The notes under the pieces: generated by a model | The model's input: only the letters and a program-made list of their open reading frames with translations | Database searches by the model: none | Told to the model about the DNA's origin: nothing | Shown: in pieces, positions 105-44,776 of the stretch | Position numbering within the stretch: position 1 is the first letter of the stretch | Layout of the letters: each line of letters begins with the position of its first letter | Source: Escherichia phage ZCEC10 | DNA length: 44,776 nucleotides | Sequence record: NC_073075 | Strand: one strand, 5' to 3' | Program-made: the position numbers and the translations under genes

Positions 105-174
105 AACCAATAAGAGACAATGAGACGGGGATTATTATTACACGCGTGCGCGCCCGTTTCAATATCCAAAGGAT

Positions 175-203
175 TTGACACCGTGCAGTTTTGGGTGTAG
201 TTT
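175..203 (+). promoter_or_regulatory. Possible sigma70-like promoter for the 235..564 gene
   Basis: TTGACA at 175..180, 17-nt spacer, TAGTTT at 198..203; weak -10. Confidence 0.3.
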
Positions 204-234
204 CGTTGGTCATTAACCAACTGAGGGCAGAGCA

Positions 235-2933: not shown

Positions 2934-3110
2934 TGCATAAAGTAAGCGGGACAGAAAGCGGGACAAACAAGGGGCGGGACAAAGCGGGACAGCACCCCCG
3001 TCCCGCCCCGGATGGCGCGGCCTGGCGAGGAGCGGGACAGCGGGACAGCACCCCAGTCTTTCAGACTAGACGGGGGGTCAATGGCCCCCCTCGTCTGAGA
3101 CTGCATAAAA
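2934..3110. repeat. Iteron-rich GC repeat R1 (six GCGGGACA(A/G) units plus long imperfect hairpin), paralogous to 20084..20253
   Basis: About 90 percent identical by eye to the second copy; both begin TGCATAAAGTAAGCGGGACAG and end in the hairpin cagactagacgggggg...cccccctcgtctgagactg. Confidence 0.8.
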
Positions 3111-20083: not shown

Positions 20084-20253
20084 TGCATAAAGTAAGCGGG
20101 ACAGAAAGCGGGACAGCCAAGGGGCGGGACAAAGCGGGACAGCACCCCGTCCCCGCCAGTGCTGCCGCGGGTTTTAGCCGATCGGGACAGCGGGACAGCA
20201 CCCCAGTCTTTCAGACTAGACGGGGGGTCAACGGCCCCCCTCGTCTGAGACTG
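20084..20253. repeat. Iteron-rich GC repeat R2, paralogous to 2934..3110
   Basis: Same unit order and terminal hairpin as R1. Confidence 0.8.
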
Positions 20254-20320
20254 AATAAGGATTGTTTTAAAATCGCTGATACAATGTCAATCGGCAACTG
20301 CATAAAAAGGGGACTGCATA

Positions 20321-25734: not shown

Positions 25735-28700
25735 CGATTATCTACGACGTCACTGGGCATAAAGGCGGCGGCGGCAAACAGCACACCCCACAGGAGACGC
25801 CCGATAGCCTGCATTCGCTGGCTAAAATCCGCATCTTGCTCGCACTGGGCGAAGGGGAATTCGAAAGTATTACCAGCGCCAGCGAATTACGGCAGCGAGT
25901 ATATCTGGACGGCACGCCGATCCAGAACGCCGATCTGTCGGAAAACTTCCCCGGCGCGCGCGTGGAGTTCCGCCCCGGCACACAACACCAGGACGTGATC
26001 CACGGATTTTCAGCGGTGGAAAGTGAGCAATCCGTAGGCGTAAAACTGGAAAACGGCACGCCGTGGGTGCGCCAGATTAATGACACCAGTCTTGACGCCG
26101 TGCGCATTCGAATCGGCATTCCCGCCCTGTACACAAACGAAGATAATGGCGACCTGGTGGGCGGGCGCATCGACTATAAGATCGTTGTGTATACGGATAA
26201 CGCAGACCCGCGTGAGTTCAGATTCGCCGCCGTTGGTAAAACAATGTCGCTATATGAGCGCGACCACCGCATCGAATTACCGCCGAACGTGAATACCGGC
26301 TGGCGGGTGGAGGTGCACCGCATAACGGCAGACTCCACATCGGCGAAAGTGGTTAATGATATCCGGGTGCAATCCATCACTGAGATTATCGACGCCCGCC
26401 TGCGATACCCGCTAACCGCGCTGTTGTTCGTGGAGTTCGACGCCAAAGCGTTCCAGAACATCCCGCGCGTGTCCATCAAGTGCAAAGGGCGTAAAGTGCT
26501 GGTGCCGAACAACTATGACCCGATTAATCATACCTATTCGGGAAACTGGGATGGCACGTTTAAACGCGCATGGACGGATAACCCCGCGTGGCACTGGTAC
26601 GATATTTGTATTACTGAGCGCTTCGGCCTCGGTCGGCGTATCAAACCGCAAATGTTAAACCGGTACGCGCTCTACCAGATTGCGCAGCGCTGCGATCAGT
26701 TGGTCAGCGACGGCAACGGTGGTCGAGAAATCCGCTTTAAGAATGATATGTACATTCAGTCACAGACGGATGCCTGGACCGTGCTTAAGGATTTAGCCGC
26801 TATCTTTGCTGGTATGACCTGGTGGGGAAATCAGATGTTGAATATCGTCAGCGACCAGCCGGTCGCAGCGGTATCGCACACCATCACCAACGCCTCGGTC
26901 ATTGATGGTCGATTCGACTACGCGTCCGGTAGCCAGAAAACTCGGTATTCCACGTTCGCGGTAGCCTACGGCAACCCAAAGAACCACTATGAAGATGCTA
27001 TCGCAACGGGACAACGTGTTGAACTGGTACGCCGCCATAAGATTAACCGTCTTGATATCACGGCGATCGGCTGTACGCGTGAATCAGAAGCGCAACGCCG
27101 CGGTCACTGGGCTCTAATCTCCAACCAGCTTGACCAGCAAGTTAGCTTTAAGGTTGGCATGGAGGGACTTTTCTTTATTCCTGGTAGCGTAGTCGCGATC
27201 GCCGATACAAACATTTCTGGCGGCTTCGAGACACGCGGCGGTCGCCTGTTGACAGATCCTGGCACGCGGACGGTGCTGAACACAGACAGCGAAATCACGT
27301 TCCGCCCCGGTGATAAATTCCTGGTACGCACCGATAGCGGTAATGTGGAGACTCGCGAGATCGCCAGCGTCAACGGCAACAAGGTAACGCTAAAAACCGC
27401 ACTGGACGCAGACCCGATTCCTGATCAGCCGTTTTGCGTTGATGGCAACGATATCCAGTTGCAGAAGTTCCGCATCACCGACCTGGAATATGACGACTCT
27501 ACCAGCACTTTTTCAGTGCGCGGGATCGAGTACAACGATAGCAAATATGATGCCGTTGATAATGGCGCTCGCCTTGATCCGGGCATCTTCACGCAAGTGC
27601 CTGACGGCGTAATGAAGGGGCCGGAGTCCGTGACCATCACCCCGTCGCAGATTTCATCGCAAGGCCAGCTAATCACCAACGTTGATATTGTATTCCCGCC
27701 GGTGAAGGATGCCGTGGTGTATGAAATCCAGTGGCGACGTACCAGCTTGCAGAATATGGAAATCCAGTGGGGTAACGACTGGGTAAACATCCCACGTACG
27801 GCATCGAACGGCGCGCACATCCCTAACGTGTTCTCCGGTAACTACCAGGCACGCGTCCGCGCAATCGGTATGGGCGAGATTTCGTCCCCGTGGGTGTCGT
27901 CCGCTATCACGCCGATCGAAGGTCGTCTCGGCGGGCTTAACGCGCCTATCATCACCAACGCGATTTCGGGCCTCCACCAGATTTTGTGGAAGTGGAACCA
28001 TAACAACGCCGCGACGGATATCTCCTACACCGAGCTTGAAGTGCGCAAGACTGGTGAGACGGAATGGAATTTCTTAACCAACGTCCCATATCCTGGGTCG
28101 GAGTATGCGCAAACGTCGCTGGAGTTCGGCATTTACCAGCAGTTGCGCGCCCGCGTAGCTGATAAAATCGGCAACCTGTCGGACTGGTCCGCCCTGTTTG
28201 AAGGCCAGGTGAGTGACAAAGTTGACGAGTACATGAAGGGGCTTGATGACGAGTTCTTGACTTCCGAGGACGGTAAACGCTTCCAGGAAGCGATCGACAC
28301 CATGCCGCAAGGTATCTATGAGTCTATGCTTACGGACGCCCAGCAGCTATTCAATGCCCGCGCCGAGTATAAAGGGATTTATGCGGAAATCACGGTGGCG
28401 TATAACGTGGCGGCGGACGCGCATAAAGCCGTAGCGCAACTGGAAACGTTGATCGGCACGCGCCTTGATGACGCCGAAGCATCAATCCACACGTTGCAGA
28501 CTGCGCAAAGCACACATGAACAAGCGTTCGCCCAGTACCAGCAAACTGTTGCCGCTAAGTTTTCGGAACAGGAAGCAGCCATCCAGCAGGTACAAACGGC
28601 AACGGCGGACGTGGCTGGCGCGCTAGCGGAGTACAAAACCCAGGTCGCGGCACAGTTCGATCAGCAGTCCGCCGCTATTGAGCAGAAGATGACGTCATCG

Positions 28701-33562: not shown

Positions 33563-33592
33563 AAGATACTGCAACCAACCTATTGGTTGCAA
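33563..33592 (-). promoter_or_regulatory. Putative sigma70-like promoter (TTGCAA-18-TATCTT, minus strand) inside a palindromic TGCAACCAA..TTGGTTGCA element
   Basis: Minus-strand -35 at 33587..33592, -10 at 33563..33568. Confidence 0.4.
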
Positions 33593-40997: not shown

Positions 40998-41783
40998 TTA
41001 ACGGCGACGACGTTTACGTGGTGCTTCGTCTTCGTCGTCTTCGTCCTCATCTTCGTCATCGCGGGACTTGCGGCGTTTGCGAGGTTTTTCATCTTCCTCA
41101 TCGTCGTCGTCATCGCGGCGCTTGGATTTCTTGGACTTGCGCGGCTTGTCATCTTCATCATCGTCATCACGACGTTTTGACTTCTTAGCCTTGCGCGGTG
41201 CTTCGTCTTCGTCGTCGTTGTCCAGGTCTTCATCGGAGCAAGAAGACCCGCCACCCCCGAAGGCTTCACCGTCATCACGGAAGCGTAAACCCAGCAAGCC
41301 AGCACCGAGTCCCTTGCCGTTGGTGTTGTTCCACGCCCAAATATCAAGGGACACGTTGCAATAACAACCAGAGTAGATCTCCTGGCCTTCAATCTCGTCG
41401 CCTTCTACGGTCAGACCCTGTTCGGTCTGCTTCTCACCGAGTGACGTTTGAATGTTTGGCTGTTTGAACGATTTAGCGTTGATGTACAACATGCCTTCGA
41501 ATTCTTCAGTCACTTCGTCGCGCTCGTCACCGTCGCGGACTGCGCATTCCTTCGAATCCTGGGCGTAGTGGCGGTCCATCCACTTATCGGCATTCTTCTC
41601 GGATTTCAGCTTGTCGGTGAGCACTGCGCGCGCTGCCGCTTCCACTTTGTCCACCTGCGGATCTTCTTTATCCAGAAGAATCACGGCACGATATGCCGGT
41701 TTTTGTCCATCCTGTTTAGGGGTGTCACGTTCCCAAATTTTCAGGAAGCATACGCGCACATTTTTCAGGTTGACTTTAGCCAT
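40998..41783 (-). CDS. Single-stranded DNA-binding protein-like (T7 gp2.5 / DUF2815-type) with a long acid/basic repeat tail
   Basis: Start MAKVNLKNVRVCF with GAGGAA RBS; position between exonuclease and polymerase; C-terminal 80 aa of alternating DDDDEDD and KPRKSKKSKRR blocks. Confidence 0.6.
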   Translation of the reverse strand: MAKVNLKNVRVCFLKIWERDTPKQDGQKPAYRAVILLDKEDPQVDKVEAAARAVLTDKLKSEKNADKWMDRHYAQDSKECAVRDGDERDEVTEEFEGMLYINAKSFKQPNIQTSLGEKQTEQGLTVEGDEIEGQEIYSGCYCNVSLDIWAWNNTNGKGLGAGLLGLRFRDDGEAFGGGGSSCSDEDLDNDDEDEAPRKAKKSKRRDDDDEDDKPRKSKKSKRRDDDDDEEDEKPRKRRKSRDDEDEDEDDEDEAPRKRRRR

Positions 41784-44017: not shown

Positions 44018-44530
44018 TTAATCTTCCAATTCGAAATAGGTTTCGACGATTTCTTTTAGCTCTGTGTGGAAGTCTTCGACGTCGTCATCTTCCAGCTTGG
44101 CGATTGATTTGATCTCGAACGACTCCAGCAGGTCGTCGAATTCGTCGTTCGCGTCGTCGTCATCACCGCCAGCGATAATCGCGGCATATTGTTTGATCTC
44201 GTCGCGCATCTCTGCCAGCGGATCGGCATCTTTCTTACCTTTGCCTTTCGCCGGTGCTTTCTTAGCCTTAGCCGGTTTTTCGTCTTCGGCATCGTCGTCG
44301 TCTTCTACGACTTCTTTTTTGGCCTTGCCTTTCGCCGGGGCTTTTTTAGATTTAGCCGGTTTTTCGTCATCGTCGTCATCGTCGTCATCTTCGACAACTT
44401 CTTTTTTGGCCTTAGACGGCTTCTTGTCTTCCTGCTTACCAACGGCAGCGCCAGCGGTTTCATAATGTTTAGCGATGGTTTCCAGTGCTACTACGCCGCG
44501 AGTGATCAGGTTTACGATTTGCTCAAACAT
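44018..44530 (-). CDS. Acidic early protein with tandem acid/basic repeats; first gene of the leftward operon (alternative start at 44710)
   Basis: 170 aa from the ATG at 44530 with GGAG RBS; two near-identical 25-aa units (KKEVVEDDDD..EKPAK.KKAPAKGK.KK); Asp/Glu-rich C-terminus. Confidence 0.55.
   Translation of the reverse strand: MFEQIVNLITRGVVALETIAKHYETAGAAVGKQEDKKPSKAKKEVVEDDDDDDDDEKPAKSKKAPAKGKAKKEVVEDDDDAEDEKPAKAKKAPAKGKGKKDADPLAEMRDEIKQYAAIIAGGDDDDANDEFDDLLESFEIKSIAKLEDDDVEDFHTELKEIVETYFELED
44225..44410. repeat. Tandem direct repeat (about 87 bp, two copies) inside the acidic early gene
   Basis: Two adjacent units sharing ...ggccttgcctttcgccgg..ctttttta.(a/c)(t/c)ttagccggtttttcgtc... 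Confidence 0.6.
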
Positions 44531-44699
44531 GGTATATCTCCGATTGGTTAAGTTTAGGTGTCGGCAGTTAACTTCGTCGGTGGCCTTAACATATTGCCAG
44601 GTTACGCGTTCTCCCGTTCGGGTAGTGGACCTGGTTATATCATCACGGTTGGGAATCCTGACACTTCGATCCGGCCCCTGCGTTGCCCCTCTCCAGTTT

Positions 44700-44776
44700 G
44701 CGTCCTGCATCCTGTCGACGGGGGGAATAATAGATTGGTTGCAGGATGGGTGTCAACAACTAATTTCAAAAAAAAA
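44700..44776. repeat. Terminal direct repeat, right copy
   Basis: Exact match to 1..77. Confidence 0.85.
44727..44756 (-). promoter_or_regulatory. Sigma70-like early leftward promoter (TTGACA-18-TATTAT, minus strand) inside the terminal repeat
   Basis: Minus-strand -35 TTGACA at 44751..44756, -10 TATTAT at 44727..44732, spacer containing TGCAACCAAT; identical copy at 28..58. Confidence 0.45.

Follow-up and report, generated by a model that had tools for sequence, protein, structure and literature searches.

A predicted structured leader RNA conserved behind the early leftward promoter of Escherichia phage ZCEC10 and other enterobacterial siphophages

The deposited genome of Escherichia phage ZCEC10 (NC_073075; all 44,776 nucleotides (nt) of it are referred to below as the window) ends in a noncoding segment, positions 44531 to 44776, the last 77 bp of which are also the first 77 bp of the record. 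This arrangement raises two questions: whether the repeat is a physical end of the chromosome with an early promoter inside it, and what is encoded by the long leader that follows this promoter on the minus strand. We put the probability at roughly 80% that the overlap is an assembly artifact, that the leftward promoter P_L and the terminator beside it are conserved, and that the leader carries an RNA selected for its fold in at least four phage lineages, with a minimal hairpin in some relatives. The original prediction, made from the letters of the window, had mixed an artifact (the repeat), ordinary real signals (promoter, terminator, and ribosome-binding site), and a correct hunch (a structured leader RNA).

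BLAST searches with the right end of the window placed ZCEC10 in the genus Dhillonvirus (HK578/SO-1-like virulent coliphages), and Escherichia phages ZCEC11 and ZCEC12, whose records are likewise 44,776 bp long, match it at 100% identity in the regions compared. The overlap itself is exact, as had been reported: positions 1 to 77 duplicate 44700 to 44776, with identity ending at 77 and a different base at 78. If it were a genuine short direct terminal repeat of virion DNA, enclosing the early promoter, independent assemblies should place it at the same position, but the three siblings have three positions. The ZCEC11 record, which equals the window over the 6.6 kb compared, begins at window position 41140 and has its own 77-bp overlap at 41140 to 41216; the end junction of the window is internal and single copy there, and a 44,699-bp unit is circularly consistent with it. 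ZCEC12 begins on the opposite strand at window positions 26231 to 26307, within the tail-fiber gene, again with a 77-bp overlap. The paper describing the three 44,776-bp genomes reports SPAdes assembly with k values of 21, 33, 55, 77, and 99 (PMC8954371), one of which is the length of the overlap, and Dhillonvirus members have been described as circular assemblies scored as headful packaging by PhageTerm (PMC9022532, PMC13348001). The overlap sequence is also internal and single copy in 170+ relatives.

Because the sibling overlaps lie elsewhere, 77 is in the SPAdes k list, and the genus is circular and headful, we attribute the end overlap to the assembler: it is a SPAdes circularization artifact of k = 77 on an otherwise circular contig, and the window is a contig, circularly permuted, from a Dhillonvirus with headful packaging. 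As in other de Bruijn circular contigs, the duplicated ends are of length k and fall at an arbitrary position that differs between assemblies, and we found no point of difference. An exact repeat at both ends of the record is also what a true terminal repeat would give, but against the siblings, the k value, and the relatives that explanation is highly improbable. With the copy of 44700 to 44776 at 1 to 77 removed, the genuine circle measures 44,699 bp. The excess of 77 bp affects three GenBank genomes (ZCEC11, ZCEC12, and, by implication, the third sibling), and the overlap is unfit as a basis for inferring packaging. The contig broke within an intergenic control region by happenstance, and the second copy of the overlap includes P_L together with the initial ~20 nt of the leader RNA.

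The minus-strand TTGACA-18-TATTAT promoter proposed earlier is the best promoter-like site of the region in our scan, with 11 of 12 consensus matches. P_L (44727 to 44756, minus strand) comprises a −35 hexamer TTGACA at 44756 to 44751, an 18-nt spacer, and a −10 hexamer TATTAT at 44732 to 44727, and transcription is predicted to start at about 44720/44719. Among 18 aligned Dhillonvirus genomes, the −35 hexamer is identical in 17 and reads TTGACG in the most distant (L021), and the −10 hexamer reads TATTAT, TAATAT, or TATCAT. Near-consensus hexamers, a spacer within 16 to 18 nt, and conservation together identify a sigma-70-type promoter. The hairpin with U10 that had been noted directly upstream on the same strand (69 to 104, read from 104 to 69; −16.7 kcal/mol) has the GC-rich stem, U-tract, and compensatory stem changes of an intrinsic terminator. 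Its stem occurs as GCGCCG/CGGCGC, CCCCG/CGGGG, and CCCCAG/CTGGGG, all three complementary, and has been rebuilt in the two most diverged relatives (L018 and L021) with the U-tract retained (U9 to U13). The 7-bp inverted repeat CATCCTG/CAGGATG fared less well: it is present (44708 to 44714 and 44742 to 44748) but not conserved and no more than chance, since we estimate that ~0.15 such pairs are expected per 77 nt. The arm in the promoter spacer is altered in three of the four spacer variants of relatives; the other arm is conserved because it is part of the leader RNA element.

The earlier guess that the leader might contain a regulatory RNA structure gains support from comparison, which points to a structured RNA backed by covariation and shared across phage genera. 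The element occupies 44560 to 44719 on the minus strand (~160 nt), is predicted to form eight helices, and is the sole match to our covariance model in the window. Its closing helix, P0, pairs GUCGACAG (44719 to 44712) with CUGCCGAC (44567 to 44560), a pairing found across lineages that brings the very start of the predicted transcript together with a segment 4 to 6 nt past the invariant tail CGACGAAG (44579 to 44572). Within P0 lie the GGA-loop hairpin P1 (~44709 to 44699; in the window most simply UGC-AGGAC-GCA), the motif GGAGAGG (44694 to 44688), the long-range helix P2 (44689 to 44685 with 44584 to 44579), and the near-invariant stem-loop domain P3-P5 (44683 to 44645). These are followed by P8 (44640 to 44637 with 44592 to 44589), P6 (44634 to 44629 with 44602 to 44597), P7 (44625 to 44611), and the invariant AGAACGC (44612 to 44606). 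In 38 of 39 copies, the P1 loop reads CAGGAUG or CAAGGAUUG, and in the P6-P8 domain the helix sequences vary freely with complementarity kept.

The case for the fold is carried by these covarying helices. P6 occurs as CCAGGU/ACCUGG, CAUGAU/AUCAUG, CUAUC/GAUAG, CGCAC/GUGCG, CAUAAC/GUUAUG, CAUUGG/CCAAUG, and others; P7 as CCC-GAAC-GGG, CUC-GAAA-GAG, GCC-ACCA-GGC, and CCG-GAAA-CGG; and P0 as GACGGGC/GCCCGUC, GACGGGU/ACCUGUC, GGGCGGC/GCCGCCC, and AGACGG/CCGUCU, with a further compensatory pair in UAGGGCG/CGCCCUA versus UGAGGCG/CGCCUUA. P2 changes from G:C to A:U between lineages, and P5 shows one G:C-to-A:U change (KMI8) as well as U·G-to-U-A changes (IME279 and MQ-4). With 22 distinct sequences aligned structurally by hand (42 pairs in seven helices), 93.5% of cells are canonical, versus 30 to 46% when partners are slid by 1 to 3 columns; 15 pairs have changed on both sides, and covariation is 0.355, versus 0.123 ± 0.010 in shuffles (0 of 500). 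A covariance model built from this alignment yielded a second one of 37 distinct copies, including metagenome copies unused in deriving the structure, with 94.3% pairing and 16 compensatory pairs. Across both alignments, pairing is 94% versus 27 to 46% slid, with 15 to 16 compensatory pairs versus 1 to 5 and covariation of 0.35 versus 0.11 to 0.12, so that compensatory substitutions go beyond both phylogenetic and positional controls. Each new variant is pair compatible. The model scores a single copy in the window (44728 to 44560, minus strand; 163.2 bits; E = 7e-45), the next best hit reaching 12 bits. Because the linkers vary in length from lineage to lineage, P6 and P8 escaped a first pass with MAFFT and RNAalifold. 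From this comparative evidence we conclude that the leader holds an RNA of ~160 nt under selection for a specific fold.

Several points weigh against that conclusion. Folded singly, the sequence has an unremarkable energy (z = 0.01), and the consensus fold lies ~3 to 11 kcal/mol above the minimum free energy, coming within a few kcal/mol once extended. P6, P8, and P0 were aligned by hand or fitted by the model, which inflates the pair percentages, and P3-P5 is hardly tested by covariation because it is almost invariant (P3 and P4 never vary). Five of the 18 Dhillonvirus genomes are without a block of ~136 nt, so that close relatives manage without the element. The transcription start, the stable fold, and the host partner are all inferred.

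Three further observations concern pairing. In Motto (L022), Warwickvirus (L023/L026), and Lumpael (L025), P1 shares the outer 3 nt of its stem with the 5' strand of P0, and in Motto a single C-to-U change is compensated in both possible partners. The overlap hints at alternative P0/P1 pairings; it is absent in KMI8 and amounts to 1 nt in the Alux-21 type. A possible additional pair would lengthen P6 over a 2-nt bulge (columns 104/127 of alignment A4; window ~44628/~44605), being C104:G127 in Dhillonvirus, Motto, and Lumpael and A:U in the Arya/MQ-4/IME279 group. In an all-against-all search of column covariation for pseudoknots, two-state lineage effects dominated, and this pair was the only signal resembling an extra pair.

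Could the leader instead be coding? No stop codon interrupts the frame between the in-frame ATG at 44710 and 44530, and the GenBank coding sequence UJQ87886.1 of ZCEC11 (OK310512.1; equal to window positions 44018 to 44710, minus strand) begins at 44710 and gives a 230-amino-acid (aa) form, a start that the original prediction had also entertained. Several lines of evidence speak against this reading and make it most improbable. About 10 nt separate ATG 44710 from the predicted 5' end, and this ATG has no Shine-Dalgarno (SD) sequence; relatives show frame-breaking 1-nt and 2-nt indels, and 5 of 18 genomes miss the ~136-nt block; and the substitutions in the region are compensatory for RNA pairing. 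The PHROG profile phrog_3127 spans the 170-aa form end to end, and that form only, and the annotations of welsh and PTXU06 start at the equivalent of 44530. The proposed ribosome-binding site at 44530 stands, with SD GGAG at 44541 to 44538 before ATG 44530. We therefore take ATG 44530, on this comparative evidence, to be the true start and 44710 to be no start. The first leftward gene (44018 to 44530, minus strand) encodes an acidic protein of 170 aa with KPAK-type repeats (phrog_3127) and is preceded by a C/A-rich, G-poor spacer (44531 to 44559) that contains the SD sequence. The first 60 codons of UJQ87886.1 are the leader RNA element, and its correct product is 170 aa. Measured from the predicted start at ~44720, the leader is ~190 nt long and not 170 nt as first proposed.

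The element occurs in 170 phage records spanning at least four lineages: Dhillonvirus; Drexlerviridae of the Tempevirinae (Warwickvirus swan01, tunus, and JLBYU07; Motto; KMI8); Murrayvirus Lumpael; and the Arya/MQ-4/IME279/Alux-21/HeidiAbel_Bas97 group. All records inspected place it between genes, in the same orientation as its neighbors. When one genome from each of 185,579 bacterial and archaeal species was scanned for the pattern, a single match emerged, on a 42.8-kb phage-like contig binned into a metagenome-assembled genome, and a metagenome scan returned 14 matches, 12 on contigs of 39 to 52 kb and 2 on short fragments. Nothing similar was found in 5,426 complete Escherichia coli genomes or 72,556 plasmids, and on this basis we rejected host-RNA mimicry and prophage origin. 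One locus (L046), which shares an 18-base seed, is no member of the family: the model leaves that site unscored, and its best score in L046 is 12 bits elsewhere.

Three divergent members searched against Rfam 15 (E ≤ 10, lax filters) had no matching family, the noise reaching at most 21 bits versus thresholds of 38 to 72. Full-text literature searches with the invariant strings, or with Dhillonvirus or Drexlerviridae plus RNA-element terms, found no description, a prior listing in the PMC10690425 catalogue not being excluded. That bulk IMG/VR catalogue holds 8,495 unnamed phage RNA candidates (PMC10690425). Like the leader element, these are covariation-supported intergenic phage motifs without an assigned function; unlike it, they are at most 151 nt long. 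A literature match for ACCGACGAAG was only a umuDC guide sequence, hence chance, and we set aside a TnpB/IscB omega-RNA; no TnpB or IscB gene was found near the element at the loci inspected. Covariation and these searches indicate that the leader element is a new, well-supported RNA family in experimentally tractable phages, a conserved, modular, promoter-proximal fold restricted to virulent enterobacterial siphophages. A large conserved RNA of this kind begins the early operons of about 170 coliphage-type genomes, including the BASEL members Bas84 and Bas97.

The surroundings of the element are as regular as its fold. In each lineage, a near-consensus sigma-70 promoter is followed by 0 to 4 unpaired nt, P0 and the element, a spacer, and an SD sequence with start codon, and in several lineages (Dhillonvirus and the Alux-21 type) a terminator precedes the promoter. 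The distance from the tail to the first plausible start codon is 25 to 61 nt, most often ~40, over a C/A-rich spacer in all phage groups. The first downstream genes are small and unrelated between lineages, and neither an intrinsic terminator nor a clear SD-sequestering helix was seen after the element. The Dhillonviruses without the element have a minimal 5'-terminal hairpin at the same place (for example, GUCG-AAA-CGAC), and the element therefore looks as if such a hairpin had had its loop elaborated. Element-bearing and element-less leaders have a single feature in common, a helix at the very 5' end; such helices are a classical protection from 5'-end-dependent decay. The presence of natural plus and minus variants within one genus makes the function directly testable.

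Our preferred mechanism, which we advance tentatively and at less than even odds, is a cis-acting leader that combines 5'-end protection with docking of a host factor. The element would act on the early transcript itself. Like simple 5'-terminal hairpins, P0 would close off the 5' end and guard it from 5'-end-dependent decay, and the invariant core and exposed GGA motifs would dock a conserved enterobacterial factor that might then determine how stable the operon transcript is or how well it is translated or elongated. That the P3-P5 core is nearly invariant speaks for recognition of a target that the hosts conserve. Like ompA-type 5'-terminal stem-loops, P0 starts 0 to 4 nt from the predicted 5' end, and element-less relatives retain a minimal hairpin in that place; unlike in those stem-loops, the loop is expanded into a multihelix domain of ~145 nt. 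A simple 5' stabilizer would need neither 160 nt nor ~75 invariant positions, and this excess over end protection counts against the stabilizing half of the proposal.

CsrA is a candidate partner because the P1 loop CAGGAUG equals the CsrB repeat. The consensus of that repeat is CAGGA(U/A/C)G, and the rule for a CsrA site is a GGA in a hairpin loop, ideally A(N)GGAUG (PMC7652899). In Dhillonvirus, the P1 region carries a tandem CAGGAUG-CAGGACG. Downstream of the P1 loop motif, a second exposed GGAGA lies at a distance of 7 to 12 nt, and a third GGA falls in the SD sequence, so that a GGA in a short-hairpin loop with another within reach is predicted here, as in CsrA-bound leaders and CsrB/CsrC. 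The likeness has its limits: the 6 GGA motifs present are no enrichment over the 4.4 ± 1.7 expected from composition, which also counts against the docking proposal, and most of the conserved nucleotides are unrelated to the GGA sites.

The same motifs bear on the idea that the RNA acts in trans, as a small RNA derived from the 5' untranslated region (5' UTR) or as a decoy titrating a host RNA-binding protein (such as CsrA) or a defense component. The tandem P1 loop fits the CsrB repeat and the GGA-in-loop rule, the compact closed fold is made from a strong promoter, and, like accessory anti-host genes, the element is both dispensable and shared horizontally. The absence of GGA enrichment, which led us to reject a CsrA sponge, speaks against a role in trans, as do the lack of a terminator or defined 3' end past P0 and the strictly conserved position at the start of the mRNA, which points to a cis role. 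We consider action in trans decidedly unlikely.

An element that is always promoter proximal and generic as to downstream genes is also what would be expected of a processive antiterminator of the HK022 put or Bacillus EAR kind, an RNA that folds as soon as it has left the promoter and stays on the polymerase that made it, so that terminators inside the operon are read through. The invariant core would suit recognition of a conserved host machine, and the element-bearing phage genera are not known to encode an RNA polymerase of their own. An intrinsic terminator lies after leftward gene 1 and before the nuclease and replication genes (~44009 to 43990, minus strand; GGCCCGC-N6-GCGGGCC followed by UCUUUUU). 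This terminator is kept in nearly all relatives, however, with or without the leader element, so presence of the one does not correlate with the other. Placement just after early promoters, indifference to downstream genes, and terminators within the operon are all shared with put and EAR, but there is no detectable similarity in sequence or architecture; put RNA consists of two stem-loops of ~70 nt, as opposed to eight helices and 160 nt here. On balance, we find antitermination doubtful.

The shape of the fold raises yet another explanation, that the element is the aptamer of a new riboswitch or a new self-cleaving ribozyme, in which P0 would switch or close the structure, and that it gates expression of the early operon or trims the 5' end of the transcript. 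Junctions and loops with conserved nucleotides, peripheral helices that covary, multiway junctions, a helix closing the element from both ends, and a location in the 5' UTR are traits of P1-closed riboswitch aptamers, and the P0/P1 overlap with its doubly compensated change in Motto would suit a switch. That overlap is, however, missing in KMI8 and reduced to a single nucleotide in the Alux-21 type; no recognizable expression platform follows the element, whether terminator or obvious SD-sequestering alternative; and no known riboswitch or ribozyme model in Rfam 15 matches. The downstream genes share no function or single pathway, and the element is absent from bacteria and found in virulent phages only, which is unusual for metabolite riboswitches. 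This explanation, too, strikes us as rather unlikely.

At the DNA level, the block might serve as a replication origin, a priming site, or an operator, since it adjoins primase/helicase genes in Dhillonvirus and the Bas97/MQ-4/Alux-21 group and its transcript is G rich. Its orientation is nevertheless always that of transcription, the compensatory changes keep pairing within one strand, close relatives that must replicate do without it, and in Drexlerviridae it lies away from replication genes. We regard a DNA-level role as very unlikely.

RNAs of such size and conservation have often proved to be riboswitches, ribozymes, or machines acting on the polymerase or ribosome. A bolder proposal, possible though we would not bet on it, is that the element founds a class of RNA of its own, specific to phages and catalytic, ligand sensing, or RNA polymerase modifying, which unrelated virulent enterobacterial siphophages exchange as a portable promoter-plus-leader cassette. 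If so, the cassette would reprogram how the host handles the early transcript, through processive antitermination, self-processing, or the sensing of a metabolite or state of the host.

When the ends of the window are joined, 44531 to 44776 and 78 to 234 form a divergent intergenic control region of 403 bp, which separates a leftward DNA-metabolism operon from a rightward helix-turn-helix (HTH)/primase-helicase operon. The leftward operon encodes the 170-aa acidic, lysine-repeat protein (phrog_3127), small proteins, and a PD-(D/E)XK nuclease, with a DNA polymerase I gene farther left on the same strand; the rightward operon begins with a 109-aa HTH protein (235 to 564) and a replicative primase-helicase. 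A scan of the control region for tRNA and tmRNA genes found none. The HTH gene has a probable promoter, P_R, and a short leader (174 to 234, plus strand; TTGACA at 174 to 179, a 17-nt spacer, TAGTTT at 197 to 202, and ATG at 235). P_R falls under the scan threshold because its −10 hexamer matches at only three of six positions, and it is proposed on the strength of sequence conservation in relatives.

The P_L spacer contains a 10-mer, TGCAACCAAT (44743 to 44734), directly upstream of the −10 hexamer and conserved in all relatives, that is overrepresented genome-wide, with 18 sites at no more than one mismatch versus 3.3 ± 1.65 expected (0 of 100 shuffles). Other sites include 3259, 3290, 3998, 14324, 14337, 30456, 33570/33582, 35244, and 35261; several of them resemble noncoding control regions beside terminator-like hairpins or −10-like hexamers. 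The sites often form tandem pairs or palindromes, such as TGCAACCAAC-CT-ATTGGTTGCA at 33570 to 33591, and a related palindrome, GTTGGTcattaACCAAC, lies at ~209 to 225, just past the presumed P_R. A DNA-binding protein of the phage, perhaps the HTH protein of 109 aa, probably uses the 10-mer as its operator.

A second promoter-like site on the minus strand (134 to 162; TTGAAA-17-(TG)AATAAT, 10 of 12 in the scan with the TG) lies upstream of the terminator, and the two define a candidate small RNA of ~58 nt (about 127 to 69). Its promoter, its 5' segment CGUCUCAUUGUCUC (CGUCUCAUUGUCUCUUAUUGGUUA), and the terminator are all conserved, including in the distant L021. No outstanding base-pairing target for it was found in the phage genome; a 10-nt match to the start region of gene 2 lies outside the best duplexes.

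Repeats occur within and beyond the leftward operon. Tandem 84-nt repeats (44224 to 44391) inside the 170-aa gene encode its KPAK/acidic repeat units, and related units occur in another gene ~3 kb away (41014 to 41234); the phrog_3127 protein ranges from 138 to 180 aa among relatives. Elsewhere in the window, a direct repeat of 175 nt (89% identical; 2934 to 3108 and 20084 to 20258, 17 kb apart) contains internal 26-nt units (CAAAGCGGGACAGCACCCC...) and adjoins clusters of a (G/T)GCAACCAAT motif.

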